DNA of 64,000 nucleotides from a virus (Duplodnaviria > Caudoviricetes), in the IMG/VR virus record IMGVR_UViG_2684623126_000004. The stretch is one strand, 5' to 3'. The position numbers and the translations under genes were made by a program. Shown piece after piece: positions 3,479 through 60,418 of this stretch (within the stretch, counting starts at the first letter, position 1; each line of letters begins with the position of its first letter). Below the pieces are notes generated by a model. The model was not told the DNA's origin and made no database searches. It saw only the letters and a list, made by a program, of their open reading frames with translations.

Positions 3479-3585
3479 TTTGCGAGGCGACCGCCGATAT
3501 TCGTGTTGACGTTCGACGCGGGATTGTTGACGTTCAGGCAGAAGAGCCCGTCGTTCGCGCCGTTGTCCCAATTGCCGCCGTTATA
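3479..3585 (-). repeat. DGR template repeat (TR), 107 nt, 10 AAC/AAT codons
   Basis: Minus strand TATAACGGCGGCAATTGGGACAACGGCGCGAAC...GGCGGTCGCCTCGCAAA; aligns without gaps to 4959-5065 and 60305-60411 with mismatches almost only at TR adenines. Confidence 0.97.
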
Positions 3586-3618
3586 AGCCCTTGCCCGTTC
3601 AAAAACCGGGGTGGTGCT

Positions 3619-3972
3619 CTACGACATGGCGGCTCCTTCGTGCTTGATCCACGCGCCGACCATGCGGCCAATTTCGTTCGTGTGTTTCATCCAGACTTCC
3701 AGGCGATGCGTGTTGATGTATTCGAGGCGATGGGCCTTGCGGATGAAGTGCCGGAACACCTCGATTTCCACGTCCAAGTCGAAAAGCGACGAAGCCTTCT
3801 GTCGGCGCTTCCACGCCACGACGGCCAGGCGGCATACCTTATTCATGGCCGCCCGCATTTCCGCGCAAAGCAAGTGCCTTTCCAGCTTCGGGAACTGATG
3901 CAGCACGGTATGCGTGTAGGCATCGAGCTCTTCCAACTTGGTGATGAGCTTCAGGTATGCGTCGTTTTTCAA
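3619..3972 (-). CDS. avd: DGR accessory variability determinant (Avd-like four-helix bundle)
   Basis: 117 aa, basic and helical; FPKLERHLL and EIGRMVGAW motifs; directly upstream of TR; TTG start overlaps upstream TGA. Confidence 0.92.
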   Translation of the reverse strand: MKNDAYLKLITKLEELDAYTHTVLHQFPKLERHLLCAEMRAAMNKVCRLAVVAWKRRQKASSLFDLDVEIEVFRHFIRKAHRLEYINTHRLEVWMKHTNEIGRMVGAWIKHEGAAMS

Positions 3973-4277
3973 GTCAGCCTTTCCCCTTCATCCTCTTCGA
4001 TGTTTTTCTGGCAGTGCTGGGCGTCGAAGGCGTCGAGCAGTTTGCACAGGATGCACCCCCACCGCTTTCCAGAGCGAGCGGCCTTCCCGGCCCGGCTGCT
4101 GATGGTTTCATCCTCGCTGCCGGCAAGCGCGGCGTTCAAGGTCTGGTCGTTGGAGACGGCCACCCGGAAAGCGCGATCACTTCCACCGATAGCCGACACC
4201 AGCGCCAGCATGTTGCCCGCCAGCGTCATCAGCATGGAGCCCAGCAGCAGGGCGATTCGGGCGCAATACTGCTTCAC
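3969..4277 (-). CDS. Small phage protein with N-terminal hydrophobic helix and CxLCxxLD motif
   Basis: Operon position between fibre chaperone and avd; translationally coupled to avd. Confidence 0.7.
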   Translation of the reverse strand: MKQYCARIALLLGSMLMTLAGNMLALVSAIGGSDRAFRVAVSNDQTLNAALAGSEDETISSRAGKAARSGKRWGCILCKLLDAFDAQHCQKNIEEDEGERLT

Positions 4278-4291
4278 CTTGCGCCCGCCCG

Positions 4292-4873
4292 TTACCAGGA
4301 AATGGCGGACAGGTCTTCCAGGGACGCGGTGGCGCCGATGGCATCTTCGGCGGCCTGACGCCGACCAATGAGCACGCCGGAGGCCGCCGCGTAGGCGTTC
4401 ATCTTGTCGAGCACGCGCGAGGCGAGCTCCGCGACCGGCAGGCCGCGCGCCGTGGCGATGGCGGTCAGCAGCGGAGCGTCCGCGCCGGCGTCGGCGGCCA
4501 GCGCCGTGGCTTCCTTGACCTGCTGGGGCCAGGACTGCACTTCGCTGTCAGGGTAGTCGGCAGCCAGCGCGGCCACCGCCTTCTGGCACTCGGCGTTGAT
4601 TTCGGTCAGCTTGGCCGCCTTCGCCGCGTTCAGGATGGCCGCGTCGCTGGCTTCGAGGATGTCCTCGCCCAGCAGTTCGACCAGATCCTGACTGCACGCC
4701 GGCACGTCTTCCGGCTGGCCGGGAACCGTGACCGAAATGAACAGGCGACCGGGGCGGTACGCCTCGGGGACGAGGTACGCTTTGACCTTGGCGGCGGTTG
4801 CCACCTCGGGCAGCGGCACGGTCATGGTGGAGCCTTCGACTTCCACCACCAGATTCCCGTTTTCGATTTGCAT
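4292..4873 (-). CDS. Probable tail fibre assembly chaperone
   Basis: Directly downstream of tail fibre, RBS AAAGGAG; C-terminal EVQSWPQQVKEA...LSAISW typical of fibre chaperones. Confidence 0.7.
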   Translation of the reverse strand: MQIENGNLVVEVEGSTMTVPLPEVATAAKVKAYLVPEAYRPGRLFISVTVPGQPEDVPACSQDLVELLGEDILEASDAAILNAAKAAKLTEINAECQKAVAALAADYPDSEVQSWPQQVKEATALAADAGADAPLLTAIATARGLPVAELASRVLDKMNAYAAASGVLIGRRQAAEDAIGATASLEDLSAISW

Positions 4874-4894
4874 TTACTGCTCCTTTCTTGAGAG

Positions 4895-4951
4895 GGGCGG
4901 CGCGCTTGGCGCGCTCGCCCAACTGCTACATGACACAGGTCACATGACCCA
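4895..4951 (-). promoter_or_regulatory. DGR target-recognition element 1: post-stop spacer (TGGGTCATGT...TGTGTCATGTA) plus bulged hairpin GGGCG-A-GCGCGC-CAA-GCGCGC-CGCCC (4895-4920)
   Basis: 31 nt downstream of VR1 stop; same architecture downstream of VR2. Confidence 0.85.
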
Positions 4952-7516
4952 TTACACCTTTGCGAGGCGACCGCCGAGACCCGTGCTGCCGCTCGACGCG
5001 GGACTGCCGACGCTCAGGCAGAAGAGCCCGTCGCCCGCGCCGCCGTCCCAATTGCCGCCGTGATAGGCGACGCAGTTCGCAGCCGACCAGAAGGCGTCCG
5101 CATACGTGCCGTTCGAGGCCGAAGCGTCGATGGTGGCGGGCAGGAACACTTGCGACAGGTCGTAGTTCGCGCCGGCATCCACGGACATCGTGACCGGGTA
5201 GGAGGCCGAAGCCGACGGCGCCACCTGGTTCGTGGTGATGTAGGTCTTGTTGCCCTGTTTGTCCCAGATTTTGTATTTCAGGCTGGCGTCGGTTTGCAGT
5301 CCATCGACCATCTGCCAGACGTTCGACCAGAGGCCGATAATGCCGCGCCACGAGGCTTGCGAGGTGGGCGACGCATCGACGTTGGTAGCGCCGGAACTGT
5401 TCGAGTTGCCTTGGCCGACCAAGGTCTGGGCGTCAGGGTTGCCCAGTTCGATGAGGGCCAGCATCTGGATGGCGGAGAGTTGGTAGATGTTCCACAGCGA
5501 GAAGCCCGTAACGCCCCCGGTGTTGCGCGCGTTCGCGCGGGCCTGCATCGTCGGGAAGTCGATGGAAACCAGCGGCCCGACGGCAGCCACGGACGCCAGC
5601 TTGTTGCCGGAGGCGTTCGAGCCCTGATACTTGCCGACCCAATACTGGGCCAGGTCAGCGCCGGCGTTCTTGAAAGCCGGGTGAATCTCGAAGCCGGTTT
5701 CCTTCTTGTCCGAAACCCAGATGGCCTTCTTTCCGACGTAGGCGCCGGACGCCACGATGCCGGTCTTGATGTAGAAGGCGGGCACCTTCACCATCGCCTG
5801 GCTGTCCAGGGTCTGATCGACGATACCGGCATAGGTCGGGTGGGCGTTGAAGAAGGCGGCATCGGTGGCCTTGGCGTTGCCGTCCTCGTCGATGCGTGCC
5901 CACGAACCGGAAGTCGCGCCAGTCGAAACCAGAGCGATACCGATCACCGTGCCGAAAATCTTTTTCGTAGTGAACTTCGTCTCCACCGACCATTCCGACC
6001 AGCCGATGGTTGCGCCCTTGTGGCGGACGCGCCAGAAGTATTGCGTGTTCGAGGACTTCAGCAGGCCGGCAGGAACGGCCAGCGAGGTCAGATGCGTGGC
6101 GTCCTCGCCGCTGTCGTAGGTGGAGGCGTCGTAGGACGCGCTGGCCTCGCGGATTTGCCATTGGGCCGCCGCTTGGGTGTCCGCACCCGCATAGACCGCG
6201 AAGGCGCTGGACGACAGCGTGGGCGTGTCGGCGACGTTGGTCAGGTTGTTGGCCGGGCCAACGTTCGACGGGGCCTGCACATACACGAACGACGCGGCGG
6301 TGGAGAACGAAACCGGGTCAGACCACGGCGACCACGCGCCTTCGGCGTCGCGCGCGCGGCCACGGGCGAAGTAGTCATGGCTGGTTTGCAGGCGCAGGCC
6401 GATTTCCTGCCAGGACAGGCCGCCCACCTGCGTGCCGCTGTCGATGATGACCTCGGCGAAGTCGGCGGTGGCGGAGACTTGGAATTGCACGGCGCCCACG
6501 GGCGTATCGGTGGGCGAAACGTAGCCGGTCAGGCCCAGCGTCGGGCGGTCGGTCAGGTTTTCAGCGCCATCGACGGGGTTGGACATGGCAGGCTTGAGCG
6601 GAGGCGTGTGCGTGCCGCGCAGGCCCGTGGTGGAGCCCAGGCCAATGATGTGCTGGATCTCGGTATTGCCAGCGCCGCCCACGACGGTCACGCGCAGCGC
6701 GGTGTCGCCATTGACGAGCAATTCGTACTCGCAGTCGATGTAGCCCGCCGGCACTTTGCCGCCTTCGCGCGTCCATGCCAGCGGCGCGGACACCCAGTCG
6801 CCATCGATCAGAAAATCGACGTTCACAACGGATGCGGTGGGCGTGCGGCGGATTACGACGGCGCGCTTGACGCCATCGAAGCCCAGATTGATGGGCTTGG
6901 AGAAGTAGGCCGCGCCCGGCTTGGCCTGCGCGGTGCCGTTAGCGACGGCAAACGAGGTGCGCGCGAGGAACGCGCCGGCGCCGCCGTAGGCGTTTGCCAG
7001 CGGGTCAGAAATGCGGATGCGGGTGCCGTTCAGCACAGCATTGACATGAACCTGCTCGGCGTGCGTCGCGTTGTAGATGACATAGTTCTGGCCGGGCGTG
7101 AAGAAGCTGCTGTCGGTCACGTCGATGGAATCGTCGCCGGCGACGGCAGAGGTCACGGCGATGGGCTGCGTGTCGGTCAGCGTGTATTCGCCGGCCCACA
7201 TTTCAAGGCTGATGTTGTTGCCCGAATAGTCCCAGTCCAGGCGCACCGCACGCGCCAGCATGGGCGCGGTCATGCCCTGCAAGTCGCCGATGTCGCCGCC
7301 CAGGTCTGCGACGGCCTGCGCCACCTGGTTCATCTTTTCGGCGAAGGTGGGCGCATCGCCCTTGGCGGCGTTCAGCTCGTCTTCGACGCTCACCTGGCGC
7401 TCGTCGAGGGCGGAGAAGTTCTCGTCGATTTCCTGGTAGCGCGTGTTCCACAGCGAGGGGACGGCATCCGGCTCGTTGTTCGGAATCGGCGTGATGTTTT
7501 GGTTGGGCAGGGACAT
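4952..7516 (-). CDS. Tail fibre/receptor-binding protein, 854 aa, with two FN3-like repeats and a C-terminal C-type-lectin-like domain; DGR target 1
   Basis: ATG at 7516 after GAAAGGAG; last gene of baseplate operon before chaperone; tandem W-S-x-W-S beta-sandwich repeats; C-terminus YHGGNW...GGRLAKV is VR1. Confidence 0.9.
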   Translation of the reverse strand: MSLPNQNITPIPNNEPDAVPSLWNTRYQEIDENFSALDERQVSVEDELNAAKGDAPTFAEKMNQVAQAVADLGGDIGDLQGMTAPMLARAVRLDWDYSGNNISLEMWAGEYTLTDTQPIAVTSAVAGDDSIDVTDSSFFTPGQNYVIYNATHAEQVHVNAVLNGTRIRISDPLANAYGGAGAFLARTSFAVANGTAQAKPGAAYFSKPINLGFDGVKRAVVIRRTPTASVVNVDFLIDGDWVSAPLAWTREGGKVPAGYIDCEYELLVNGDTALRVTVVGGAGNTEIQHIIGLGSTTGLRGTHTPPLKPAMSNPVDGAENLTDRPTLGLTGYVSPTDTPVGAVQFQVSATADFAEVIIDSGTQVGGLSWQEIGLRLQTSHDYFARGRARDAEGAWSPWSDPVSFSTAASFVYVQAPSNVGPANNLTNVADTPTLSSSAFAVYAGADTQAAAQWQIREASASYDASTYDSGEDATHLTSLAVPAGLLKSSNTQYFWRVRHKGATIGWSEWSVETKFTTKKIFGTVIGIALVSTGATSGSWARIDEDGNAKATDAAFFNAHPTYAGIVDQTLDSQAMVKVPAFYIKTGIVASGAYVGKKAIWVSDKKETGFEIHPAFKNAGADLAQYWVGKYQGSNASGNKLASVAAVGPLVSIDFPTMQARANARNTGGVTGFSLWNIYQLSAIQMLALIELGNPDAQTLVGQGNSNSSGATNVDASPTSQASWRGIIGLWSNVWQMVDGLQTDASLKYKIWDKQGNKTYITTNQVAPSASASYPVTMSVDAGANYDLSQVFLPATIDASASNGTYADAFWSAANCVAYHGGNWDGGAGDGLFCLSVGSPASSGSTGLGGRLAKV
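4959..5065 (-). repeat. DGR variable region VR1
   Basis: Versus TR: 14 substitutions at adenines (12 A>G, 2 A>C) and one T>G. Confidence 0.96.
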
Positions 7517-7530
7517 GGGGGGAGCTCCTT

Positions 7531-7917
7531 TCAGAATCGCATCTTCAGATTGACGCCATAGGTTTCCCCGTTCTCCAGGTACTTCGGCGCAAAGGTTTTC
7601 CAGCAAACAAGGTTGCCGTCGGTGTCGAGCAAGGCCGCCTCGGAGAGAGCGCCGGCATTGAGGTCGTCGGATTCGACGACGCCCTTCCCGGTGGCGGAAT
7701 ACAGGTCTTCTTGAACCAAGGCCGTGACGGGCTTGCGCTTGACCTCGTGGTAGAGGCCGGCGGCGCCGCTGTCGGCGGGCTTGGCGGTGTTGTCGGGGTT
7801 GTGGCCACCGTCGCCGTAGGCGATGAATGCGATGGGCTTGAGTACGCCAGTGCCGGCCATGTGGGCGGCGACGCGGCGGCGGTAGCTATCGGCGACTACG
7901 GCTTCGGGCACGGTCAC
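7531..7917 (-). CDS. Tail-collar/fibre attachment protein (position of P1 gene R)
   Basis: IAYGDGG and LSEAALLD motifs of collar-type proteins; GTGA overlap with upstream gene. Confidence 0.65.
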   Translation of the reverse strand: MTVPEAVVADSYRRRVAAHMAGTGVLKPIAFIAYGDGGHNPDNTAKPADSGAAGLYHEVKRKPVTALVQEDLYSATGKGVVESDDLNAGALSEAALLDTDGNLVCWKTFAPKYLENGETYGVNLKMRF

Positions 7918-9181: not shown

Positions 9182-10678
9182 TCACCCGCCCCAGGTGGGC
9201 GTGACGATGTTTGCCGTTTCGACGGTCACGGCCAGGCTGTCGGCGGACACGTAGCGCCACATTTCAGGGCGTGCGGCCAGAGACGGCGGTTCCACGATGT
9301 TCACGGTCAGGTCGGAATCGCCGCTTGCCAGCGCCGCCACCTTCTGGCGCAGCAGTTCATACACGCGCTTGTAGAGCGGGCGATTGCGCCCACGGCGCGA
9401 CGCGGCGGCGGCCTGGCCGAACTCGCCCAGCGCGGCCTCGATGATTTTCTGGCGCACGTCGGAAGCAACGTAGGACGTGCTCACGCGCGCGCTCACGGAC
9501 ATGGCGATCTTCGAGCGCACCGGCGTGAAGAAATAGACCCGGTAGCTGTTGTCGGCGGCCAGAATCGCGGCGCGAATGGTGCGCTGCGTCTCGGTCAGGT
9601 CATCCTCGGCGATTTTCACCGGCGCCACGGGCACAGCGGGATCCGATTCTTCGAGCACGGCTTCGCCGCCCTCTTCGGACAGGCAGGCCACGAACAGGGC
9701 GTTGATGTTGTCGAGGCTCGCGCCGCGCGCCTGCTCTTCCTCGGTTTCGTTCCAGATCGAGAGGAATTGCAGGTTCGGGAACTTCTTGCGTACCAGAAAC
9801 CCGAACTCGCCCAGGAACACCGCGTTGTCGTCATAGACCGACGGGTAGCGCGCGAGGTCGCGCAGCACCGACATGGGCATGGGGTTTTGGCCGGGCTGCA
9901 AGAGCGCGTCCATCTTGAGCTCCACGACGGCTTCCAGCGGCGAACCAAGGTACTCGAACGAGAACGGGCTGCCGAAGGCCGGGCTCACAGCGCCGTTGGT
10001 GTAGTAGGTGGTCAGGGTGATTTCGGCCCCGTCCGCCGGCTGCACGCCCACCACGCCGCTGAAGCCGAATCGGACATAGACCTGCTGGCGGTCGTCGGCT
10101 TCGACGTGGAACACGCGCTCGTCGGCCTCGGTATTCACATAGCGATTGCGGTAGGCGTACTCGCCCTGGGCGTCGCTCACGGCGATGGAGCACAGGAAGG
10201 CGTCGTCGTCCGCCGCCGGCACAGGCACGGCATAGAACGGCTCGCTGCCGGAAACCGTGTGCGTGATCGTCACGGCGCGAAGCTGGCTGGCCTCGAAGGT
10301 AGCCTCGCCGCCCGGTGGGATGGTGATGGGGGTTTCCGCGCGGTACAGCAGGCCGGACGAATCCAGCAGCGTGCGCGCCGATTCCACGGTGAAGTCCTCG
10401 GTTCCGCCGTTGATGGCGCGGATGCGCACGCGCGCCGGCGTGCCGCTACGGATGATGCCGCGCATGGCCGCGTCGGCAAGCACGGTCGAATCGCGCACCT
10501 TGTCGTAGGGTTCGGCCTGGGCGGTTTCCACTTGGGCGGAAAACATCGCCAGCATGGTCGCCATCGCGTCCAGGTGTTGCAGGGTGCGCGGGTCGCCCGC
10601 CTGGTACAGCGGCGCGATGGACTGGTAGTTGCCGATGGTGTCGGCGATTTTCTTCTGGAAGTCTGCCTTGGTGTACAT
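9182..10678 (-). CDS. Baseplate J-like wedge protein (P1 BplA-like)
   Basis: 498 aa; VYVRFG and LARYPSVYD segments; synteny. Confidence 0.75.
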   Translation of the reverse strand: MYTKADFQKKIADTIGNYQSIAPLYQAGDPRTLQHLDAMATMLAMFSAQVETAQAEPYDKVRDSTVLADAAMRGIIRSGTPARVRIRAINGGTEDFTVESARTLLDSSGLLYRAETPITIPPGGEATFEASQLRAVTITHTVSGSEPFYAVPVPAADDDAFLCSIAVSDAQGEYAYRNRYVNTEADERVFHVEADDRQQVYVRFGFSGVVGVQPADGAEITLTTYYTNGAVSPAFGSPFSFEYLGSPLEAVVELKMDALLQPGQNPMPMSVLRDLARYPSVYDDNAVFLGEFGFLVRKKFPNLQFLSIWNETEEEQARGASLDNINALFVACLSEEGGEAVLEESDPAVPVAPVKIAEDDLTETQRTIRAAILAADNSYRVYFFTPVRSKIAMSVSARVSTSYVASDVRQKIIEAALGEFGQAAAASRRGRNRPLYKRVYELLRQKVAALASGDSDLTVNIVEPPSLAARPEMWRYVSADSLAVTVETANIVTPTWGG

Positions 10679-14662: not shown

Positions 14663-16237
14663 TTAGCCCCTCATGCCACCGAACCCGCCGCCCATGCCGC
14701 CATCGTCCTCGGGCGGTTTAGCATCGACGACGCTGGCGTAGAGCTTGGCCTGGTCTTCGTCAAGCATCATGGTCTTCACGAGGAATTCGGTCATCACCTC
14801 CTTGCTCGCGCCCAGCTCCTTCATCATCTGCATGGCCTGGGCCAGCAGCATCCCCGCGTTCATCGAATCAGAGCGCGTGCGCTGCTTCTCGGCTTCCAGG
14901 GCCGAAATAGACCCGAAGAAGTTGATCGTCCAGGGGCGCTCCTTGGGGTCGAACACCACGCCGTAGCGGCGCATGGTGTGGATGTCGATGACGTGGTTGA
15001 AGAAGTCGGACAGCGCCACGCGGATGATGCGCGCGCGCTCGGCGGCCTGCGCGGACACGCGGAAGAAGCCGCCCTCGCCAAGCCCGCCGGAAAGCTGATC
15101 AGCGAAACCCAGCATGGACAAATCGACGCCCAGCGCGCCGGCCAGCATCCGGGCGTGCAGCATCACGTCCTCGATGCTGATGGTCGCAGCGCGGCCAGGT
15201 GCGCCGCCGTTCGCCGGCCCCACTGTGGAAAGCTGCTTTTCGTTGAAAACCGGGATGATGTGGCGGATCCGCTCCATGACCGGGCGGCCAGTTTTCACGG
15301 CCTGCTCGGCGTAGGCTTTCGACGCCATGAGCATAGCCTTGACCGATTCGACGAACCGCTGTTGCTGATCGAGGTTCATGGATTCCAGATTGACCGCCAC
15401 CATCTGCTCGTCAATCGAATCCATCCACCTCTGCCCGACCAAGCCCAGCAGGGATGCCGTGAGATTGTCGTAAGGCCCTTCGGCGCTGTAGAGCAGAGAG
15501 CCGCCGACCATGCTTGGCATGATGGGCAGGCTGTCGATGTCGTCCTCGGAGATTGCCAGGCGCACCGCCTTTTCGACGACACCGTACTGCGGCACCCACT
15601 GGACGCGCGGCATCTTCAAGCGGGCCATCTGCGAAACGTCAAGCCGCTCGAAGCCTCGCTCGCCGGTATAGACGGCGAAACCCACCGTGCGGCTGCCGCG
15701 CTCGAATGGCTGCACCATCGGTGGGCGGATGGTTTCGTCCATGTGGATGTCCACCACGCCGCGCGAGTTCGTGTAGAGGCGCGCGTAGGAATCCCCGAAT
15801 GCGCCGCCGATGTAAGCCGCCTGAAAGGCCGTCTTGTTGAAGAGCGGCGCCAGCTCGGCGGCGATGTCATCGACGATGGCGGAAAGACGCTTGTCCTTCT
15901 TCGTCTCGGACTTCTTTTCGACGAAAACGAGGTCGCCATTGGTTTCGTGCCCACCAAGGGCCGAAGTGACCAGCAGCATGAGAGCCGTCGAAATGATGGG
16001 GTCGCCCTCCATCATCGACCACTTTTCGTAGATGATTTGCCGCGCCCGCGCCCCCTTGCTGCCGGAACCCAGAAGCGATGCAATGGTGGTCGTTCCGGCC
16101 CCGTACATGAAGGCATCGGAAGCCGTGATTTGCTGCGCCGGCGCGATGTGCGACGATGCCCACCGCTTGCGGGACAGGCCAAGCCGGGCCAGGAAGCCGG
16201 GCTTGGGCGGAACGGGGGTGTTGGAAATATCGGCCAT
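14663..16237 (-). CDS. Portal protein (P1 Prt-like)
   Basis: 524 aa; MEGDPIISTAL, FGDSYARLY, LAGALGVDLSMLG, GGLGEGGF segments. Confidence 0.8.
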   Translation of the reverse strand: MADISNTPVPPKPGFLARLGLSRKRWASSHIAPAQQITASDAFMYGAGTTTIASLLGSGSKGARARQIIYEKWSMMEGDPIISTALMLLVTSALGGHETNGDLVFVEKKSETKKDKRLSAIVDDIAAELAPLFNKTAFQAAYIGGAFGDSYARLYTNSRGVVDIHMDETIRPPMVQPFERGSRTVGFAVYTGERGFERLDVSQMARLKMPRVQWVPQYGVVEKAVRLAISEDDIDSLPIMPSMVGGSLLYSAEGPYDNLTASLLGLVGQRWMDSIDEQMVAVNLESMNLDQQQRFVESVKAMLMASKAYAEQAVKTGRPVMERIRHIIPVFNEKQLSTVGPANGGAPGRAATISIEDVMLHARMLAGALGVDLSMLGFADQLSGGLGEGGFFRVSAQAAERARIIRVALSDFFNHVIDIHTMRRYGVVFDPKERPWTINFFGSISALEAEKQRTRSDSMNAGMLLAQAMQMMKELGASKEVMTEFLVKTMMLDEDQAKLYASVVDAKPPEDDGGMGGGFGGMRG

Positions 16238-28463: not shown

Positions 28464-28469
28464 GCAGGC

Positions 28470-28510
28470 ATGGTATGGCCCGCGTTGCCCGTTATTTCGG
28501 GTGGTTTTCC
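28470..28510 (-). promoter_or_regulatory. Candidate late promoter GGAAAA-N29-TACCAT, leaderless darA mRNA
   Basis: -10 followed by 6 nt then ATG. Confidence 0.7.
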
Positions 28511-28701
28511 GCCTCAATGTCGGCGGCAAGCTGATGGATGGTGATGCAGATGTCGGCCAGGTCGCGGCCAGCTTTCGACTTCTTGGAGAGGCCCCCGAAG
28601 TAGTCCAGCTCGGCGGCGATGTCGGCCATTTCGTCGGCCATCGCGCGCAGCCGCTTGGCCGGCGCTTCCGGCGGCGACTGCGGCGCGGGACTGCTGCTCA
28701 T
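28492..28701 (-). CDS. Hypothetical 69-aa helical protein
   Basis: Fills gap between hdf and darA in operon direction. Confidence 0.5.
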   Translation of the reverse strand: MSSSPAPQSPPEAPAKRLRAMADEMADIAAELDYFGGLSKKSKAGRDLADICITIHQLAADIEAENHPK

Positions 28702-45576: not shown

Positions 45577-47151
45577 CTACACGTCGGCGAACATTTCGGC
45601 GGCCTTCTTCGATACCTCGTCGGTCAGGCTGTTCGTCAATTCCCCGGCGCTGTCGCTCACCATGTAGGTAGCGCCTTCGAGGTATGCAAAGCTCATGGCG
45701 TCGATCAAGTCAGGGGACTTGATGCCCTCGCGCCGCATGTCCTCCTTGGACATCATCACGTAGCGCAGGCCGCCGGCCTCGCTGAAGTGGTACGGCAGCC
45801 GGGAGCCCTGGTCGATGATCTTCTCGCGCAGCTTCTTGGAAATGCCCTGCGGCAGCACCACGCGGCCCTGCCGGACGGCATCACGGAAGCGCACCATCGC
45901 GCACGCGCGCAGGTTGTAGAACCGGCTCTTGTATTCGTTCTTGAAGCAAGGGATGCCCCAATTCACCCGAACCACCGTGGCGCCGGAACGCTCGATCAGC
46001 TTGCACACGGTCGCGCCGACGCCGCCAGCATCCACGTACAGCGTGGCGTTGGACAGCTTGCCCACCAGATTCACCAGGTCGCCGGCCAGGTCGATTTCGT
46101 TCTTGTCGTTGGCCGCGATGGGGATTTCGATGTATTCCACGCGGCGCGCGTCCGGCCCGTGGTCGGTGTCGCCGATGATCTTGGCGACGATGGCAACCGA
46201 ATCGTCGCGGTACTCGCCCAAGGCCACGTCGGACAGCACCACCAGGCCGAAGGGTTCGTCGTCGGCGATCAGCTTGCGCGGCTCGAAGGCGGCCTCGATG
46301 TCGGCGCGGGTCAGAAGGACATTGCTGCTGCTTTGGGCGAACAGGCCCAGCACGCGGATCTGGTATTCGACGGAACTGCGCCCGCCGCTCTCGTTCGCCC
46401 GCTCGCGCAGCCATTGGGTCGTGACGAAGGGCGACAGCTCGGAATTGAAGCGCAGCGCGTGCCAGCTTCCCCCGTTCTCGCGCTTCAGCGTGTGGTGCGA
46501 ATCGTAGAAGCGCCCAGCGTTGCGCGCCCCCTGCGACGCCATGAGCGTGCGGTTCCCGCCCTGGGTCTGGGTGCCGTCGATCACGTCGAAGTGGTCGTCG
46601 GACACGCCGGCTGCTTCGTCGATGATGATGAGCTGCCAGTAGCGGTGCTTACCCGCTACCCCGATGGCCTCGCCCTTCTTCATTGCGATCTGGGTGATGA
46701 ACCACTGCTCGGCGAACCCATTCACATGCACGCGGGTCTTCGTGATGGTGAAAAAGTCGTTCAGCCAGGCGTGCGGCCCGTTGGCGATGGCGATGCGGGC
46801 ATCCTGCATTTCCTTCCAGATGCCGTCGGCAACCTGCTGGATGAACGGCGCGCCGATGTAGGTGTTGCTGCCCACCTCCACCTTGCCGTCATAGACCGCC
46901 ACAGGGAAGCAGAGCAAGTGCCAGAGCGCGATGCGCGCGAAGCTGGCCGTCTTGCCGGTGCCGGTGCCGGACACCACGGACACCTTGGCATTCTCCGGCG
47001 TGATGGCCTGGAACAAATCCATCTGGTCGGCGCTGGGCATGAAGCCCGTCACCTCCACGGCGAAGCGCAGCGGGTCGGCGTGATACCGCTCCACGAACTC
47101 CGCGTAGCGCGGGTCTTCCAGCAGGTTCCGGTTCCTCTTCTTGGCCGCCAT
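45577..47151 (-). CDS. terL: Terminase large subunit (PacB-like)
   Basis: Walker A SGTGTGKT, Walker B IIIDEA, nuclease SDVALG, VDAGGVG, SPDLIDA. Confidence 0.92.
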   Translation of the reverse strand: MAAKKRNRNLLEDPRYAEFVERYHADPLRFAVEVTGFMPSADQMDLFQAITPENAKVSVVSGTGTGKTASFARIALWHLLCFPVAVYDGKVEVGSNTYIGAPFIQQVADGIWKEMQDARIAIANGPHAWLNDFFTITKTRVHVNGFAEQWFITQIAMKKGEAIGVAGKHRYWQLIIIDEAAGVSDDHFDVIDGTQTQGGNRTLMASQGARNAGRFYDSHHTLKRENGGSWHALRFNSELSPFVTTQWLRERANESGGRSSVEYQIRVLGLFAQSSSNVLLTRADIEAAFEPRKLIADDEPFGLVVLSDVALGEYRDDSVAIVAKIIGDTDHGPDARRVEYIEIPIAANDKNEIDLAGDLVNLVGKLSNATLYVDAGGVGATVCKLIERSGATVVRVNWGIPCFKNEYKSRFYNLRACAMVRFRDAVRQGRVVLPQGISKKLREKIIDQGSRLPYHFSEAGGLRYVMMSKEDMRREGIKSPDLIDAMSFAYLEGATYMVSDSAGELTNSLTDEVSKKAAEMFADV

Positions 47152-47158
47152 GATGCGC

Positions 47159-48361
47159 CTAGCTGCCCGTGGATTCCGGCTCTTGCAGCGGCTGCCCGTC
47201 CTCACCGCCGCCCGCCGGCGTGGCATCCTCGATCAGGCCGCGCTCGGACAGCACCGCCGCCTGCCGCGTGCGCGCCTGGTGCATCTTGTCCTCGTAGATG
47301 CGGTAGAGGTCTTCGCCCGACACCATGTTGATATTGACCTCGACATCCTTCTCCTTGAACAGGCCCAGCGCGCGCGCCAGGTTGTCCATCGCCTTCTCTT
47401 TGGACAGCATCAATACCTCGATGCCCTCCTTGCCCACCTTGACGCCGCAATAGACGAGGCGCGCCGCCGGCGACAGGTTGCGGGTGTCGTTGAAGAACAC
47501 TTCCTCGATGCCGTGGCCGTGGCACTCCGGGCAGTCCTCGTGCGGGGCCTTGCGCTTGTCATACCAAGCGTCGGTGTAGTCAGGGAACTCGCCGATGTCG
47601 TCGGCACTGTCCGCCTTCTTCCGGCGGGCGCGCTCCCGGTCGTGCTTCTTCTTGGCCTCTTCCAGGCCGGACGGGGTGTATTGCCGGGCATGGCCCTCGC
47701 CCCAGCAGTACGGGCAACAGACCCGGCGAAGCTGGGAGATTTCGTTCGCGTCGAACGTGACGATGGCGGCCCACAGGCGCATGAGTTCGTCGCCGTCGAT
47801 TCCCAGCCGGCGGGCGCGGGCCGTGGCGAGGGTGACGATGGCCTGGCTCACCTTCGGATTTTGTAGAAGCTGCCAGCCCTGCGTCATCGCGCTCTTGGGG
47901 CTGTATCCGGCCCTGATTGCCGCTGCCGATGCGTTCCAATCCACAAGGTATTCGCGCACGAAGATTTCTTGCTGGTCGGTCAGGTCGGCGAACACTCCGA
48001 ACTCGTCCGGGTCGCGCTCCACGGCCTGCATGGTCGTAGCCGGCAAGGTTTCGATGGTTTCTCCGGCGATGGTTTCGCCCTTCTCGGAAACCATGCGGCC
48101 AGAAACCTTTGCCTTCGGCTTCCCGCTCTTGCCGGTCTTTGCTTTGGTTTCGATGGTTTCGGGCGTAGGTTTCTCGCCCGGCAGGTGCAGCGGGGACTTC
48201 TTCAGCCAGCCGTCGGCGGTCGCGCGCTTGCGCACGGCAGGCGCGGAGACGGGCAGTTCCATTTCGGCCACCAGCCAGGTGTAGCCGTCGCGGGGGTCGT
48301 TCTCCCACTTGGCGCGAACAGCAGTCCACTTCTGCGGGGAGAGCTTCGGGGGTGCAGCCAT
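47159..48361 (-). CDS. terS: Terminase small subunit with internal zinc finger
   Basis: FVREYLVDWNASAAAIRAGYS TerS motif; CCPYCWG...CPECHG; SKEKAMDNLAR. Confidence 0.88.
   Translation of the reverse strand: MAAPPKLSPQKWTAVRAKWENDPRDGYTWLVAEMELPVSAPAVRKRATADGWLKKSPLHLPGEKPTPETIETKAKTGKSGKPKAKVSGRMVSEKGETIAGETIETLPATTMQAVERDPDEFGVFADLTDQQEIFVREYLVDWNASAAAIRAGYSPKSAMTQGWQLLQNPKVSQAIVTLATARARRLGIDGDELMRLWAAIVTFDANEISQLRRVCCPYCWGEGHARQYTPSGLEEAKKKHDRERARRKKADSADDIGEFPDYTDAWYDKRKAPHEDCPECHGHGIEEVFFNDTRNLSPAARLVYCGVKVGKEGIEVLMLSKEKAMDNLARALGLFKEKDVEVNINMVSGEDLYRIYEDKMHQARTRQAAVLSERGLIEDATPAGGGEDGQPLQEPESTGS
48047..48173. repeat. Array of eight GGTTTC/GAAACC hexamers in terS; candidate pac site
   Basis: GGTTTC at 48047, 48056, 48071, 48146, 48155, 48168; inverted GAAACC at 48087, 48102. 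Confidence 0.65.
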
Positions 48362-54731: not shown

Positions 54732-55190
54732 TCAGTTCCCCCGGATGGCCTGAAGAAGCTCTCCACTGGCCTTCATCAGCGCCAGCAGCAGCGGTTCCAG
54801 CGTGCGGCGCTCGTCGCCGTCGAAGCGGCCATCCATCGCGGCCTCGGATCCGGCGCCGAACAGCTCGGACGACGCCTTCACCAGGGACAGGAACAGCTTG
54901 ACGGCCTCGGCAGGCGGACGGGCTTCCAACTCGAAGTCCATAGGAACCTGCCCGACGAGGTGGGCCAGCGCGAAGATGGCGCGCTTGGCTTGGGCCACGA
55001 CGACGATTTCGAGGATGACGCTGAAGGACGGCGGCGGGGCCTCGTGGTCGGGGTTGATGCCGTTGGCGAGGGTGTTGCCGTTCATACCCATCGTTTCGGC
55101 GATGGCGCGGACGCCGCCGGGGTATTCCTTGGCGTCGGCCTGAAGGGCCAGAAACAGGGCGCGGTGAGCTTGTTTGATGGGGCGGCGCAT
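54732..55190 (-). CDS. cII: Phage regulatory protein, CII family
   Basis: YPGGVRAIAETMGMNGNTLANGINP; position after cro. Confidence 0.75.
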   Translation of the reverse strand: MRRPIKQAHRALFLALQADAKEYPGGVRAIAETMGMNGNTLANGINPDHEAPPPSFSVILEIVVVAQAKRAIFALAHLVGQVPMDFELEARPPAEAVKLFLSLVKASSELFGAGSEAAMDGRFDGDERRTLEPLLLALMKASGELLQAIRGN

Positions 55191-55270: not shown

Positions 55271-55531
55271 TCATGCAGCAGCCTCGCTTCCAGTCGTCTC
55301 GTTATTTGCAGCAGCGCCAGAGCCGCGCAGGTAGGCCCAATCAACGTCAGGGCGCAGCTCTTCGCACGTCACGGCACCGCCCGTGGCCTTCTCGATGGCC
55401 GGGCAGCGTTCAGCGGGGATGGGCCGGGTGTTGTTCGCCCACTGGGAAATGAGCACGGGCGCAACTTCGAGCGCCCGCCCAAGGGCGGCAGCCCGTCCGC
55501 GTTGCTGATCGATGTAGGTTCGCAGGTTCAT
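55271..55531 (-). CDS. cro: Cro-like repressor (YdaS family)
   Basis: ISQWANNTRPIPAERCPAIEKATGGAVTCEELRPD; divergent from cI. Confidence 0.9.
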   Translation of the reverse strand: MNLRTYIDQQRGRAAALGRALEVAPVLISQWANNTRPIPAERCPAIEKATGGAVTCEELRPDVDWAYLRGSGAAANNETTGSEAAA

Positions 55532-55538
55532 GCTGCGA

Positions 55539-55603
55539 ATAATAGCACGGTGCTACACAAAAGCAATAGCACCGTGCGTCTTCCAATAATTAGCAGGGTG
55601 CTA
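55539..55603. promoter_or_regulatory. Immunity switch: three operators TAGCAC-N-GTGCTA (55543, 55567, 55591; 24-bp period) overlapping the cro promoter (TTGCTT-16-TATTAT, leaderless)
   Basis: Perfect palindrome at 55543-55555 and two variants; same motif at 57432 and 57456. Confidence 0.88.
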
Positions 55604-55616: not shown

Positions 55617-56063
55617 ATGAGAACAATAGAAGAGGTACGTCACGATTGGCTCTTGCGGCTGGTTGAAAAGCACGGCACGGTGGCCGACCTGAACGCCGCG
55701 CTGGGCCGCACGCGCACGGACGCAACCCTCACCCAAATCAAGAACAAAGCGCCCAATACCCGGACTGGGAAGGTCAGGAGCATGGGCAGCGACCTCGCGC
55801 GCGAAATCGAAGAAAAATTAGGGATGGAGCGCGGAACCCTCGATCACGAGCCGAAAGAAACTGCTCAAGTCGGTGATGCGCAAGGGCCTTGGACGGCCTA
55901 CGAGCGCGCGGACGAGGTGCGCCGAGAGCTGGTCAATGCCGTCCTCAACATCGGCAGCGCGCCGCCGTGGCTGGATCCGTCGGCAGTTAAGTTCCTCGTT
56001 GGAATGACGAAGGAAGCTGCCGACAGTTTCAGCGCCGAGAGAAAAAAGAAACCCGCCGCCTAA
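55617..56063 (+). CDS. cI: CI-like immunity repressor without S24 peptidase domain
   Basis: Divergent from cro; MGSDLAREIEEKLGMERGTLD motif; only 148 aa. Confidence 0.8.
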   Translation: MRTIEEVRHDWLLRLVEKHGTVADLNAALGRTRTDATLTQIKNKAPNTRTGKVRSMGSDLAREIEEKLGMERGTLDHEPKETAQVGDAQGPWTAYERADEVRRELVNAVLNIGSAPPWLDPSAVKFLVGMTKEAADSFSAERKKKPAA

Positions 56064-56075
56064 GCTGACGCTCGT

Positions 56076-56924
56076 ATGGTCGAGGGGAACGTAGTGCAAG
56101 AAAAAATCGAAGTCGCCACCGATGACATAGAAACCATCCTGCGCTTCATGCTGGGCTTCTATCACATCAACACGGGCGCCGCCGACGACCTGTTTAATAT
56201 CGAGCCGGCGCACCGCGAGCGCGTCGTGGAAACCGGCATGGCACGCACCGTCGCCCAGCTCGCCAAGCTGGGAATCCCGTGCATCGAAGGAAAGCTGCGC
56301 GGCGGCTCCCTGGTCTTCCTGGGCGACCCAGACCTTGAAGCACACAAGGCACTGTATGGGCCGGGCACCATCTGCGTGTTGGAGAAGCACATGGCCCAGC
56401 ACGATGAGCGCGCCCTGCTCGATGGGTTCGAGGCCAGGGTGAGGCTGGATGGCTCCGACACTTGGCTATGTGTCGGCATCAGCCCCACGGCAGCCTTTGA
56501 AGATGAAGATGAAGAGCCCGAAGAGGAAGAGCCGCCGATGCTCCCTCCGCCATCCACCATGCACGACATCAACCGCGTCGCAGTCATTGCGGCAAGTGCC
56601 GATGGCTTCGGTGTCGTAGCGCGAAACCGCGAGCTACGCGCCGACTTCGTGCGCCCTATTGCGCAGAGCGAGTTGCCTGAATCGGAAGAGTCCATCGTCC
56701 AGGCCATCGCGCAACAGGCCGTGACGTTCTGGGAGTTCGGTGTGGTGCCGATGCGCGCGAAGGAATTAAAATCGAGCGGAAAGAAGATCGCCGAGATTGC
56801 AGAAGCCCTTGGCATCACCAAGCAGCGCGCCGAACGCGCCGTGGGCATGGAAATGAAGCTCACGCTCATTGAGAAGATGGCAGAGTATCAGGCCAAGAAC
56901 GAACAGAAAGGAATCGCACCATGA
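56076..56924 (+). CDS. Hypothetical acidic protein with C-terminal HTH, co-transcribed with cI (alternative GTG start at 56094)
   Basis: Same strand, 12 nt after cI stop; KKIAEIAEALGITKQRAERAV HTH. Confidence 0.75.
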   Translation: MVEGNVVQEKIEVATDDIETILRFMLGFYHINTGAADDLFNIEPAHRERVVETGMARTVAQLAKLGIPCIEGKLRGGSLVFLGDPDLEAHKALYGPGTICVLEKHMAQHDERALLDGFEARVRLDGSDTWLCVGISPTAAFEDEDEEPEEEEPPMLPPPSTMHDINRVAVIAASADGFGVVARNRELRADFVRPIAQSELPESEESIVQAIAQQAVTFWEFGVVPMRAKELKSSGKKIAEIAEALGITKQRAERAVGMEMKLTLIEKMAEYQAKNEQKGIAP

Positions 56925-57358
56925 CCATGCTTCGCACCGCGCTCCTTGCCGCCATGCTGCTGGCCGGCGTAGCGCAGGCCGCACCACCCGCGCTGTCCGA
57001 TCAGCAAATATCGACGATTGCCGGGATGATGTTCCAAGCCTACGCCGAGGGTGGCGTGCCCCAGATGTTCGCCGACGAAATGAAGTGCTGGGACGACGCA
57101 TCGAAGACCAAGCGCGCCGACAAAAACGTGGTGGCCGCCTGCGCCACAGCGGCAATGTCCGGCGGCCTGATCGAGGCATCATTTGCACGCAAGCAGCGGC
57201 GCGGCCCGAGTCCGCAGTACGCCGGCGACGCCATCCGCGCGCGCATATCCGACCTGTCCGGCTTGAATCCCGACGTGCTGCAATCCCTATCCGATGAAAC
57301 CCTGCGGCCAGGCGTACCCGCCATGCTGACCGGCCTACAGGGCGCCGGCATGAGATAG
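56921..57358 (+). CDS. Secreted/periplasmic protein with signal peptide and two Cys
   Basis: LLAAMLLAGVAQA signal peptide; ATGA overlap. Confidence 0.8.
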   Translation: MTMLRTALLAAMLLAGVAQAAPPALSDQQISTIAGMMFQAYAEGGVPQMFADEMKCWDDASKTKRADKNVVAACATAAMSGGLIEASFARKQRRGPSPQYAGDAIRARISDLSGLNPDVLQSLSDETLRPGVPAMLTGLQGAGMR

Positions 57359-57388: not shown

Positions 57389-57420
57389 AGAAGCCCGGCC
57401 ATTTGGCCGGGTTTTCTTTT
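57389..57420 (+). terminator. Rho-independent terminator ending the cI operon
   Basis: CCCGGCCA-TT-TGGCCGGG followed by TTTTCTTTT. Confidence 0.85.
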
Positions 57421-57431: not shown

Positions 57432-57472
57432 TAGCACGGTGCTATTGACAATGAAAAGCACGGTGCTATCAT
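57432..57472 (+). promoter_or_regulatory. Early promoter (TTGACA-16-TGcTATCAT) with two operators (57432-57444, 57456-57468)
   Basis: Consensus -35, extended -10, operator palindromes matching the cro/cI region; third variant GAGCGCGGTGCTC at 57509. Confidence 0.9.
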
Positions 57473-57903: not shown

Positions 57904-57967
57904 CACCGCCGATTGCACCCAGTCGCCGGTGCTGATGCTCCCCTCAACCACAACCGAAAGGCCAACC

Positions 57968-58258: not shown

Positions 58259-58261
58259 TCC

Positions 58262-58468
58262 ATGCCCGCGCCGCCGCGCGATAGGCGGAGGGACGACGCC
58301 AACAGTCGCACCCCGGTGAAAGGCCGGGGCCATCAAGAGGCGCCCTGGGCAAATCCAGCGCCGACCAACCCCAGAGCGAAGCACCCACGGGCAAGTTGGA
58401 GCCCGTCTCCGGGGCGCCCCTTGATGGCGGTCGCATGACCGAATCCCCTACCCGTGAGGACGGGTAGG
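58262..58468 (+). ncRNA. Candidate structured ncRNA
   Basis: 16-bp long-range stem (58329-58345 with 58412-58428) plus flanking hairpins. Confidence 0.5.
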
Positions 58469-58577
58469 CGGCGGACGAGCCCCGATGACGCCTGCCAGCC
58501 AGGCCGAGAAAAGCGCGCTTGCAAATGGTGCAGGTAGCCCGACCGCCATCAGCATCATCAACCACCGGAGCAAAGCC

Positions 58578-58832
58578 ATGAACCGAAACCAGTACGAAGT
58601 TGCCCGTCGCGCGCGCGTCGAACGAGAGGTTCGCGCCAGCTCCGGCCCCGAAGACAGCGAAGCCGACATCCAAGAAATGATCGAGGACGCCATCGAAGAA
58701 GAGTTGCGCGCCGAGGCGCACGACCGCGAGGAAGACCTGGCGATGTTCGGCAGCCCAGAGGACACGCCCTGCATCCAGTCGGCGGACATCTGGGGCACGG
58801 GCGAAGGTCAGTACCACGGCTTCATCGGCTGA
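58578..58832 (+). CDS. Hypothetical acidic protein (84 aa)
   Basis: RBS GGAG, phage-like codon usage. Confidence 0.6.
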   Translation: MNRNQYEVARRARVEREVRASSGPEDSEADIQEMIEDAIEEELRAEAHDREEDLAMFGSPEDTPCIQSADIWGTGEGQYHGFIG

Positions 58833-58852
58833 CGCACCGCGAGGCACAGAAC

Positions 58853-59116
58853 ATGCGCATCAACATCTACAGCCAGGAACTGACGGACGAAGTGCTACGT
58901 GTCGAAAAGCCGAGCAACACCGGCGTCACGTATCACGCCGTCCAGTTCATCTTGCACAGCAGCGACAGGCTGCACCACCCGCCGCAGGACGACGACCGGA
59001 GCGCCGTGACGTTCTGGCTCCCCAAGTCGTCGGCACGCCGGGAACAGCTTGCAAAAGCCTTCGATGAAGCGGCGCGCATCGTGCGCACCGCGCCGCCCGA
59101 AACCGGGCTCGATTGA
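58853..59116 (+). CDS. Hypothetical protein (87 aa)
   Basis: RBS GAGG; protein-like composition. Confidence 0.7.
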   Translation: MRINIYSQELTDEVLRVEKPSNTGVTYHAVQFILHSSDRLHHPPQDDDRSAVTFWLPKSSARREQLAKAFDEAARIVRTAPPETGLD

Positions 59117-59122
59117 CCGAAT

Positions 59123-59198
59123 TGCGGCGTAGAGCAGTTGGCAGCTCGCCGGCTTCATAAGCCGGAGGTCGCTGGTTCGATTCCAGCCGCCGCTACCA
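59123..59198 (+). tRNA. tRNA-Met(CAT), initiator-like scaffold, encoded CCA
   Basis: Full cloverleaf; 1:72 mismatch (U:U), A11:U24, anticodon loop TTCATAA, TTCGATT T-loop. Confidence 0.93.
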
Positions 59199-59443
59199 CC
59201 TTCCGACCCCACTGACAGGCTGGACTGGGAATCAAACCGGGCGCATGTCTGTTCGACCAGCCGGAGGTCGTGGAAACCGGAACGAAAGCGGATGCTGGCC
59301 TGGGATTGCTTCGGCGGTCGTGCGCAGCCAGACGCAGCGAGTAGGACGCGAGCCTGAACGCGCACAGGCCCATGCCGGACATGGTGAAAGCCGGAATCCC
59401 GCTCCTGCCCATCAAGCACCCCATCAACGCAAAGGACATCAAC

Positions 59444-60418
59444 ATGAGCCAAATCGGCATCGTCTTCGGCAAAAAGCACGCGCCCTGGACGCGCATCGAC
59501 AACAGCGGCGCCATCGTCACCCCGGACGCCAGCTTCTTCAGTAACCACCCGACCTTCGCCGGCATCGCCGACGAGGAAATCGACGGCCAGAGCATGGTGC
59601 GCGTGCCGGCCTTCTACTACCGCTCCGACATCGTGCGCGACGGCCCGCTGCTGGGCAAGAAGGCGCTCTGGGTGAGCGACGAACCCGCCGAAGGCTACGC
59701 GCTGCATCCGGCCTTCCGCAACAACGGCGCCGACCTCGCGCAATACTGGCTGGGCAAGTACCAGGGCACGCCGGACGGCGACGACAAGCTGGGCTCGCAA
59801 GCCGGCCTGATGCCGCTGGCACGCATCGACTTCCCCACCATGCAGGCGCGCGCCGCCGCGCGCGGCGAGGGCTGGATGTTGTGGAGCATTTACCAGCTCG
59901 CGGCCATCCAGGCGCTGGCGCTGATCGAGTGCGGCACGCCCAACGTCAAGTCCATCCTGGGCGAGGGCTACATCGACGGAAACGGCGTGCGCAAGGTCGA
60001 TGACGCCGAGGTGGTGCAGGCGGCCTACCGGGGCATCACGGGCCTCTGGGGCAACGTCTGGCAGATGCTGGACGGCTTGCAGACCGGCGCGAACCGCGAG
60101 TTCCTCATCTGGGACAAGGACGGCCACCGCAACCTGCTCAATACTGGCATCGAAGCGCCGGAGCATGGCTGGATCCACAAGCGCCTGCGCAACGTCGGCG
60201 AGGGATTCGACCTGGGTGCGGCGTTCGTGCCCAAGAAGACCCGCGACGAGCAAGAGGACGCGGCCTACGGCAACTACTCGTGGTTCTGGTCTGGCGGCGT
60301 GGCGTACCACGGCGGCAATTGGGGCGACGGCGCGGCCGGCGGGCTCTTCTGCCTGTACGTCTACAGTCCCGCGTCGCACGTCAGCACGACTGTCGGCGGT
60401 CGCCTCGCAAAGGTGTAA
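59444..60418 (+). CDS. Stand-alone C-type-lectin-like protein, 324 aa, paralogue of the tail fibre C-terminal domain; DGR target 2
   Basis: ATG after AAAGGA; shares HPxFAGI, MVxVPAFY, HPAFxNxGADLAQYWxGKYQG, IDFPTMQARA, GIxGLWxNVWQM with the fibre; ends in VR2. Confidence 0.92.
   Translation: MSQIGIVFGKKHAPWTRIDNSGAIVTPDASFFSNHPTFAGIADEEIDGQSMVRVPAFYYRSDIVRDGPLLGKKALWVSDEPAEGYALHPAFRNNGADLAQYWLGKYQGTPDGDDKLGSQAGLMPLARIDFPTMQARAAARGEGWMLWSIYQLAAIQALALIECGTPNVKSILGEGYIDGNGVRKVDDAEVVQAAYRGITGLWGNVWQMLDGLQTGANREFLIWDKDGHRNLLNTGIEAPEHGWIHKRLRNVGEGFDLGAAFVPKKTRDEQEDAAYGNYSWFWSGGVAYHGGNWGDGAAGGLFCLYVYSPASHVSTTVGGRLAKV
60305..60411 (+). repeat. DGR variable region VR2
   Basis: Versus TR: 13 substitutions at adenines (7 A>G, 4 A>C, 2 A>T) plus one silent T>C at the 5' edge. 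Confidence 0.96.

Follow-up and report, generated by a model that had tools for sequence, protein, structure and literature searches.

Organization of the retroelement and its two targets

The DNA analysed here is a 64,000-nt stretch (hereafter the window) of a tailed-phage genome, IMG/VR record IMGVR_UViG_2684623126_000004 (Duplodnaviria; Caudoviricetes), which belongs to a temperate myovirus prophage and carries a diversity-generating retroelement (DGR). Its cassette is encoded on the minus strand in the order tail fibre gene with a variable repeat (VR1), 193-aa open reading frame (ORF), 102-aa ORF, bAvd gene, template repeat (TR) and reverse transcriptase (RT) gene, and a further repeat matching the same TR (VR2) lies on the opposite strand, at the end of a separate gene. 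The components are as follows, the TR being flanked by a sequence resembling IMH*, the template-side counterpart of the initiation of mutagenic homing (IMH) site.

2254-3318, minus strand: DGR reverse transcriptase, 354 aa (Pfam RVT_1, 6.7e-27; phrog_1423, 6e-126)
3479-3585, minus strand: TR (107 nt; 28 adenines, ten AAY codons), with the IMH*-like CGAATAG after it
3619-3972, minus strand: bAvd accessory variability determinant, 117 aa (Pfam bAvd, 3.9e-24; phrog_3206 'Avd protein of DGR', 2.8e-34)
3969-4277, minus strand: 102-aa ORF between the 193-aa ORF and avd (phrog_34710)
4292-4873, minus strand: 193-aa ORF directly 3' of the fibre gene (phrog_2618)
4952-7606, minus strand: tail fibre, 884 aa (phrog_5302 'tail protein'; Ig-like domain), next to the baseplate gene at 9182-10678
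4959-5065, minus strand: VR1, the final 107 nt ahead of the last two codons and stop of the tail fibre gene
59444-60418, plus strand: second target, a stand-alone C-type-lectin variable protein of 324 aa (48% identity to the fibre domain; AlphaFold 2 model; match to TaqVP)
60305-60411, plus strand: VR2, at the end of the 324-aa protein gene and hypervariable among orthologues

The RT carries the motifs of the DGR clade (VGALTSQ at residue 190 and YMDD at residue 222), and residues 541-884 of the tail fibre form its C-type-lectin variable domain. Judged by its sequence, the element is a DGR of the BPP-1 type in which every DGR part is present. The 193-aa ORF possibly encodes a fibre accessory or chaperone protein, and the gene in the equivalent position of a related locus from a Burkholderiaceae metagenome-assembled genome (MAG; locus L023) matches tail-fibre PHROGs. 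On the plus strand, a 101-aa ORF at 3281-3586 overlaps both the beginning of the RT gene and TR; among the selected ORFs its G+C content at third codon positions is the lowest (0.75), and it is probably no true gene.

One template repeat and two independently altered variable repeats

A repeat search of the window returned a single family of three members, at 3470-3589, 4942-5073 (direct) and 60297-60428 (inverted), and whole-genome blastn found these three copies and one RT gene in the 6.17-Mb genome, and nothing further. Anchored on their shared core, TR, VR1 and VR2 align without gaps across 107 nt, and the mismatch counts proposed in the initial annotation were reproduced: VR1 departs from TR at 15 positions, 14 of them TR adenines and one a T>G change, and VR2 departs at 14, of which 13 are TR adenines and one is a silent T>C change (TAT>TAC) at the 5' edge. 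Set against the 28 adenine and 79 non-adenine positions of TR, this bias is highly significant for both repeats (Fisher's exact p 4.3e-9 for VR1 and 2.5e-8 for VR2), and in the frame of the VRs the AAY codons of TR specify Asn. The 5'-most apparent adenine change, from AAC in TR to CAC (His313) in both VRs, probably reflects the edge of the repeat, outside the replaced region, rather than DGR activity, because the His is invariant in all orthologues and the TR and VR of other genomes differ there at non-adenine positions; setting it aside leaves core adenine counts of 13 for VR1 and 12 for VR2.

At least one VR is altered at 18 TR adenines, five of them in VR1 only, four in VR2 only, four in both to different bases and five in both to the same base. 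VR1 and VR2 are thus unlike each other at 13 of the 18 mutated adenine positions, which argues that they are independent products rather than mutual copies and upholds the earlier claim of separate diversification with no recent copying between them. The same comparison bears on the possibility that VR1, by gene conversion through the 130-nt inverted repeat, is the source of the VR2 alleles, with no direct retrohoming. The two VRs with their flanks are indeed 87% identical across 132 nt, but conversion sits poorly with alleles that differ at most of the mutated adenines, as it does with Pigmentiphaga humi (described below), which has no VR1 matching its TR1 and yet a remote VR that diverges from TR1 at adenines only. 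We consider gene conversion exceedingly unlikely.

Putative homing signals downstream of both variable repeats

The three repeats share a GC-rich 19-nt end, TCGGCGGTCGCCTCGCAAA, downstream of which both VRs read GGTGTAATGGGTCATGT whereas TR reads CGAATAG; this is the IMH versus IMH* arrangement that the initial annotation had described, assigned from sequence. In both targets the stop codon is followed by a spacer of 29-31 nt that contains two GTCATGT motifs, and then by a GC hairpin.

4895-4920, minus strand: GC hairpin that follows VR1, with stems of 5 bp and 6 bp around a bulged A and a CAA loop; folding energy as DNA -15.2 kcal/mol (z -4.3)
60448-60473, plus strand: GC hairpin that follows VR2, with stems of 5 bp and 6 bp around a bulged A and a CGA loop; folding energy as DNA -17.4 kcal/mol (z -5.6)

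The inner stems of the two hairpins are unlike in sequence yet still paired (GCGCGC/GCGCGC versus GCCTGC/GCAGGC). In an alignment of the sequences that follow 21 targets, of both kinds and taken from this genome and others, the helix proved to be paired in 90% of cells, with both sides changed in 7 of the 10 pairs, values reached by none of 500 shuffles, while controls slid along the alignment were 33-49% paired. DNA folding of the TR region returned no hairpin of the target type. In BPP-1, a GC-rich stem located 4-34 bp from the VR is needed for the target to be recognised, and it is the structure and not the sequence that matters (Guo et al., PMC3240598); the hairpins found here correspond to this element.

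The VR2 hairpin is followed by a run of six T (60476-60481), which is kept in the Pandoraea and Xylophilus relatives and in a related metagenome contig, and the VR1 hairpin has no T-run. From its sequence, the VR2 hairpin with T6 looks like an intrinsic terminator within the early operon.

Turnover of VR2 among close relatives

The 90%-identity database cluster of the VR2 protein holds 63 sequences, from Pandoraea apista, Xylophilus sp. and metagenomes. We aligned twelve orthologues that are 92-100% identical to the protein of the window. Outside the VR none of the 286 columns contains four or more residue types; within it, all 13 TR-adenine codons vary, nine of them with four or more residue types, and the non-adenine codons are variable in 4 of 15 cases. 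In a Xylophilus prophage whose RT is 95% identical to that of the window, TR is the same at 107 of 107 positions and both VR1 and VR2 differ from those of the window. The initial annotation had considered that VR2 might be invariant in related prophages, or changed at sites other than TR adenines; among these orthologues VR2 varies, and its variation is tied to the TR-adenine codons. By these comparisons both VRs turn over in nature and VR2 is a live DGR target; that one DGR serves both targets is, in our assessment, highly probable on sequence grounds.

These data also weigh on whether VR2 could instead be a relic, that is, a duplicated fibre fragment that resembles TR by descent and is a substrate no longer. 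A single genome cannot reveal turnover, and in Comamonas nitrativorans the copy has in fact decayed, with 12 non-adenine mismatches to its TR1. In the window, by comparison, 13 of the 14 VR2 mismatches fall at adenines and the sole exception is one silent edge change; the IMH and the hairpin are intact; the remainder of the gene is 48% identical to the fibre, and a relic of that age would have gained non-adenine changes; and orthologues with the same TR bear other VR2 alleles, limited to adenine codons. A relic is therefore very improbable.

Layouts in other phages

A scan of species genomes identified 39 loci, those derived from MAGs being possibly incomplete, and the layout comes in three forms: a shared TR, tandem DGRs, and a short target within the cassette. 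In the shared-TR form, seen in Gulbenkiania mobilis, a Burkholderiaceae MAG, Bordetella hinzii LMG 13501, Pseudomonas sp. UMAB-08 and Alcaligenaceae CGII-64, the TR adjoins the long fibre, and the contig also carries the short paralogue at a distance of about 29-62 kb; the mismatches of both VRs are adenine-biased.

The tandem form, with two RTs about 1.7 kb apart, occurs in Pigmentiphaga humi, Pigmentiphaga sp. NML080357, Comamonas nitrativorans, an Azonexus MAG and a Porticoccaceae MAG. The second RT and TR2 serve an adjacent target gene, of 383 aa, in Comamonas; in Pigmentiphaga humi the corresponding TR2/VR repeat pair is present and the adjacent target is Mtd-like. The first unit of Pigmentiphaga humi, avd-TR1-RT1, has an RT orthologous to that of the window (75% identity) and lacks a target next to it. 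The short paralogue, about 55 kb away, is the only match of its TR1, and all 15 of 15 core mismatches are at adenines. The check on the Azonexus and Porticoccaceae MAGs was limited to the short VR, which hit one TR alone; 10 of 11 mismatches fall at adenines in the former and 8 of 8 in the latter. The TR1 of Comamonas nitrativorans (L049, the short target being on L014) is identical to that of Pigmentiphaga humi over the aligned 104 nt; the sequences suggest that its divergent short VR is either a decayed target or accompanied by a recently exchanged DGR. The prophages of Comamonas nitrativorans (L049:3928-8930), Pigmentiphaga humi (L050) and Pigmentiphaga sp. NML080357 (L051) each have two complete tandem DGRs, whose RTs are 43-47% identical to each other.

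The in-cassette form is represented by the Burkholderiaceae MAG locus L023, in which fibre, accessory gene, avd, TR, RT, short target and integrase follow one another and all seven mismatches of the short VR are at adenines.

The position of the short gene in the early region is kept in Pandoraea apista, Xylophilus, Comamonas, Pigmentiphaga and metagenome contigs. In the Mu-like transposable prophage of Gulbenkiania mobilis (L018:5752-8768) the short gene is found about 1 kb 3' of the transposase A and B genes, with the DGR and the long fibre about 29 kb from it; in the Burkholderiaceae MAG and Pseudomonas sp. UMAB-08 it stands beside recombination exonucleases, and in B. hinzii near a methylase and an integrase. 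In none of the loci examined was the short gene found inside a tail gene cluster. Across surveyed contigs and protein records, the stand-alone target occurs in Pandoraea, Bordetella, Burkholderia, Pseudomonas, Alcaligenes, Comamonas and others.

The second target is a stand-alone lectin-fold protein

The ORF of the second target is open from 59372, and its orthologues (322-328 aa) start at the position equivalent to M25, that is at 59444, after an AAGGA motif. The product shares 48% identity (E 8e-106) with residues 541-884 of the fibre, with homology beginning at the first strand of the lectin domain, and it matches positions 227-541 of phrog_5302; no Pfam family, Mtd_N included, was matched. 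An AlphaFold 2 model built from 63 homologues has a mean pLDDT of 96. The closest solved structure is that of TaqVP (PDB 5vf4; Foldseek E 3e-15, TM 0.56; profile E 5e-21 with the VR segment covered), a monomeric single-domain DGR variable protein from a prophage (PMC6328139), and further Foldseek matches are Mtd (TM 0.34-0.37), TvpA and formylglycine-generating enzymes (FGE). On the predicted structure, the VR codes for the exposed, C-terminal part of the C-type-lectin fold, and VR1 falls within the homology to the fibre. Reading the N-terminal sequence (MSQIGIVFGKK...) revealed no signal peptide, lipobox or hydrophobic segment, and the protein has no shaft or attachment domain, no transmembrane segment and no N-terminal extension beyond the lectin fold.

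The short protein had no match in 37 other species genomes of the same genus (0/37), and the phage isolate database returned no close relative at the DNA level and one protein match, 30% identical. We also considered whether the short gene might be an exchangeable fibre end in the style of the invertible segments of Mu and P1, and rejected this, as the paralogue DNA is about 66% identical outside the VR and the short gene has its own start codon and orthologues of constant length.

Genomic setting of the second target

From 2254 to 55531 almost all genes run leftward, and from 55617 onward they run rightward. The following features surround this switch and the second target; promoter, operators and terminator, like the attachment core described at the end, were identified as sequence patterns only.

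55271-55531, minus strand: cro-like gene (YdaS/Cro-like), with the CII gene at 54732-55190
about 55535-55603, no strand assigned: operator palindromes TAGCACnGTGCTA, two copies ahead of the cro-like gene (pattern match)
57390-57415, plus strand: terminator-like hairpin closing the putative repressor block
57445-57472, plus strand: candidate PL-like early promoter TTGACA-16-TATCAT (11 of 12 consensus matches)
59123-59198, plus strand: phage-borne tRNA-Met (CAT), 245 nt 5' of the second target
60622-60993, plus strand: HNH endonuclease gene directly after the second target (Pfam HNH_3; phrog_99)

The putative repressor block (55617-57358) consists of three ORFs without a family match. The candidate promoter directly follows the terminator-like hairpin, is the sole near-consensus sigma-70 promoter within 6.5 kb, and is overlapped by two copies of the palindrome, at 57432-57444 and 57456-57468. 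The window holds four such sites (0.03 expected), two before the cro-like gene and two flanking the promoter, and this predicted array of four palindromes and promoter resembles a lambdoid OR/OL arrangement. The rightward operon then comprises a KTSC gene, two small ORFs, the tRNA-Met gene, the VR2 gene, the HNH endonuclease gene, a 365-aa gene and a RecE-like exonuclease gene, and rightward genes extend to a cytosine methylase near attR. The description of the VR2 gene as an early-operon gene in the initial annotation fits this near-consensus candidate promoter flanked by two predicted operators.

The 365-aa gene adjoins the RecE-like exonuclease gene, and a similar-sized gene in L023 is an integrase. 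We rejected the tRNA-Met gene as a conserved partner of the second target, having found it in the closest relatives L007 and L010 only. The HNH gene is kept after the second target in Pandoraea, Xylophilus and metagenome relatives and is absent from the Comamonas and Pigmentiphaga relatives, and for this reason it may be a mobile insertion.

Model of dual targeting

By analogy with the known DGR mechanism, the avd-TR-RT unit would yield a TR transcript, which the RT with Avd would copy into cDNA while misreading adenines, and the cDNA would replace DNA that ends in a matching IMH with a GC hairpin downstream. As two sites carry an IMH and a hairpin, one template would serve both the tail fibre and the second gene: it would act cis-proximally on VR1, 1.4 kb away, and in trans on VR2, which in the prophage is 56.7 kb away on the other strand and in a circular phage would be about 18.7 kb from the template across the att junction. 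Published work agrees with such action in trans and irrespective of strand: the avd-TR-brt unit is functional when supplied on a plasmid, and targeting persists when the VR is inverted (PMC5758913; PMC3240598). Taken as a whole, a BPP-1-type DGR in a temperate myovirus prophage of about 75.6 kb, with one template rewriting two genes, is a reading that we consider very likely.

Several observations weigh against this picture or its placement of the second gene. The hairpin loops have 3 nt (CAA, CGA) as opposed to the 4-nt GRNA loop of BPP-1, and the hairpins stand 37-41 nt from the end of TR homology, slightly beyond the reported range (PMC3240598). The Comamonas nitrativorans repeat shows that a short target can decay. 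The short gene of L023 directly follows the RT gene, beside the tail module, the PHROG label of the second-target family (phrog_5302) is 'tail protein', and the promoter and operators that would mark the second gene as early are pattern matches.

Possible roles of the second target

What the second protein does bears on the broader claim of the initial annotation, that one retroelement diversifies a virion and a non-virion protein. The dual targeting stood, with one TR, two targets and shared IMH and downstream signals; a non-virion status of the second product is plausible, with the reservation that the protein is a paralogue of the receptor-binding domain of the fibre and falls in a 'tail protein' family. 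Its features incline us, by a little, toward an early-expressed, soluble binding protein that is no part of the virion, since it has no attachment domain, resembles a monomeric lectin, is encoded in early or accessory regions of unrelated backbones, lambdoid, Mu-like and others, and lies behind a promoter predicted to be operator-controlled. Its specificity would then be tuned independently of the fibre, toward a ligand derived from the host or a competitor, as in host takeover, exclusion or counter-defence. A role requiring specificity matched to the fibre, such as masking the phage's own receptor, seems less likely, because VR1 and VR2 alleles are unrelated in every genome examined. We tentatively put forward the more specific proposal of a DGR-diversified non-structural effector, a cytoplasmic lectin-fold binder made early and re-rolled independently of the fibre to meet variable molecules of hosts or rival phages; such an effector would be important enough that some relatives keep a whole second DGR just for it.

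The 324-aa protein may alternatively be a virion component, namely an additional receptor-binding protein with a gene of its own, docking to the tail like the stand-alone Mtd of BPP-1, in which case the DGR would diversify two host-recognition proteins. The 48% identity to the receptor-binding end of the fibre and the phrog_5302 match would be expected of such a protein, some family members carry Mtd_N (PF18454), the L023 gene comes directly after the RT gene and next to the tail-fibre module, and phage DGRs with two targets, both proposed to be binding proteins, are known (PMC10743442). Docking is harder to reconcile with the absence of an N-terminal extension beyond the lectin fold and with a best structural match to monomeric TaqVP and a lower-scoring one to Mtd, as is a tail function with a gene that, in the backbones examined, keeps company with early, recombination, transposition or integration genes instead of the tail cluster, and that in the window lies behind the predicted early promoter. 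We regard a virion role as possible rather than probable.

Relation to known systems

The BPP-1 DGR (mtd-avd-TR-brt) shares with the present element the order of target, avd, TR and RT, the bAvd-type accessory protein, an RT with GxxxSQ and YMDD motifs, and an AAY-rich TR. In both elements, too, TR and VR have a common GC-rich IMH, beyond which the VR continues with sequence of its own, a GC hairpin comes downstream of the VR, and the tail fibre bears a variable domain of the C-type-lectin kind. The BPP-1 element differs in having one target instead of two, an adjacent target that is the 381-aa trimeric Mtd instead of an 884-aa fibre, and no counterpart of the two small ORFs between fibre and avd; its hairpin, with the GRNA loop, also contrasts with the one here, which has a bulged A and a 3-nt loop and lies further from the VR. 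At the DNA level, the RT of a Bordetella phage is about 70% similar to that of the window over 194 nt.

Non-adjacent targets have been catalogued in 45 of 372 DGRs by Wu et al. 2018 (PMC5758913). In their survey, phage-associated DGRs often pair an adjacent target with a non-adjacent one, usually located within about 50 kb of the RT and presumably part of a single prophage, and two phage DGRs have a non-adjacent target only. The architecture of their two-target prophage DGRs is the same as that found here, although the 57 kb of the present prophage slightly exceeds their usual range, and their non-adjacent-only DGRs are like the dedicated tandem DGR of Pigmentiphaga humi; the survey gives no description of the second targets. 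TaqVP, from a Thermus aquaticus prophage, is like the second target in its single-domain, FGE-type C-type-lectin fold and C-terminal VR, and unlike it in sequence (about 17% identity) and in being the adjacent and only target of its DGR. In the tentaclins of gut-phage DGRs, a single DGR acts on a pair of C-lectin proteins, the second of which has a role left open (PMC10743442); there, in contrast to the bare fibre-tip paralogue in an early region described here, an N-terminal lectin is followed by Ig domains and the gene is in the cassette. Roux et al. 2021 refer to non-structural targets in viruses but give no characterisation of them. Our literature search returned no publication dealing with this lineage of prophages, nor any on a fibre-tip paralogue that stands alone in an early region.

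The mechanism is thus that of a textbook DGR, and a non-adjacent second target in a prophage has already been catalogued, so the finding adds no new mechanism and leaves the view of how DGRs work unchanged. What gives it value is the second target: a hypervariable lectin-fold protein that stands alone, is conserved, is encoded among the early genes of several phage backbones, and in Pigmentiphaga humi has an apparently dedicated DGR. To our knowledge, nearly all characterised phage DGR targets are receptor-binding parts of the virion, and a diversified non-structural early protein, if true, would be a second use of targeted hypermutation by phages. The lineage is present in cultivable hosts, making the role of the second target directly testable.

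Prophage boundaries and other genes

The boundaries of the prophage are predicted from a short direct repeat next to the integrase gene.

1-720: host riboflavin synthase gene, flanking the candidate attL
902-916, no strand assigned: candidate attL core AAAGTGGGTAGCTAG, the same 15-mer being at 76513-76527 (window numbering, past the window end)
973-2265, plus strand: tyrosine integrase (Pfam Arm-DNA-bind_3 and Phage_integrase), convergent with the RT gene

This 15-nt repeat is likely the att core, giving a prophage of 75.6 kb. The assignment to the myoviruses draws on genes for the sheath (36200-37897), baseplate (9182-10678), portal (14663-16237) and terminase (45577-47226). Two giant minus-strand genes occupy 16763-23209 and 23223-28529; the 2148-aa product is a DarB-like methyltransferase/helicase (phrog_11801, 1564 bits) and the 1768-aa product has a lysozyme/endolysin-like N-terminal region, similarities that suggest that both are P1-like anti-restriction proteins delivered with the virion.

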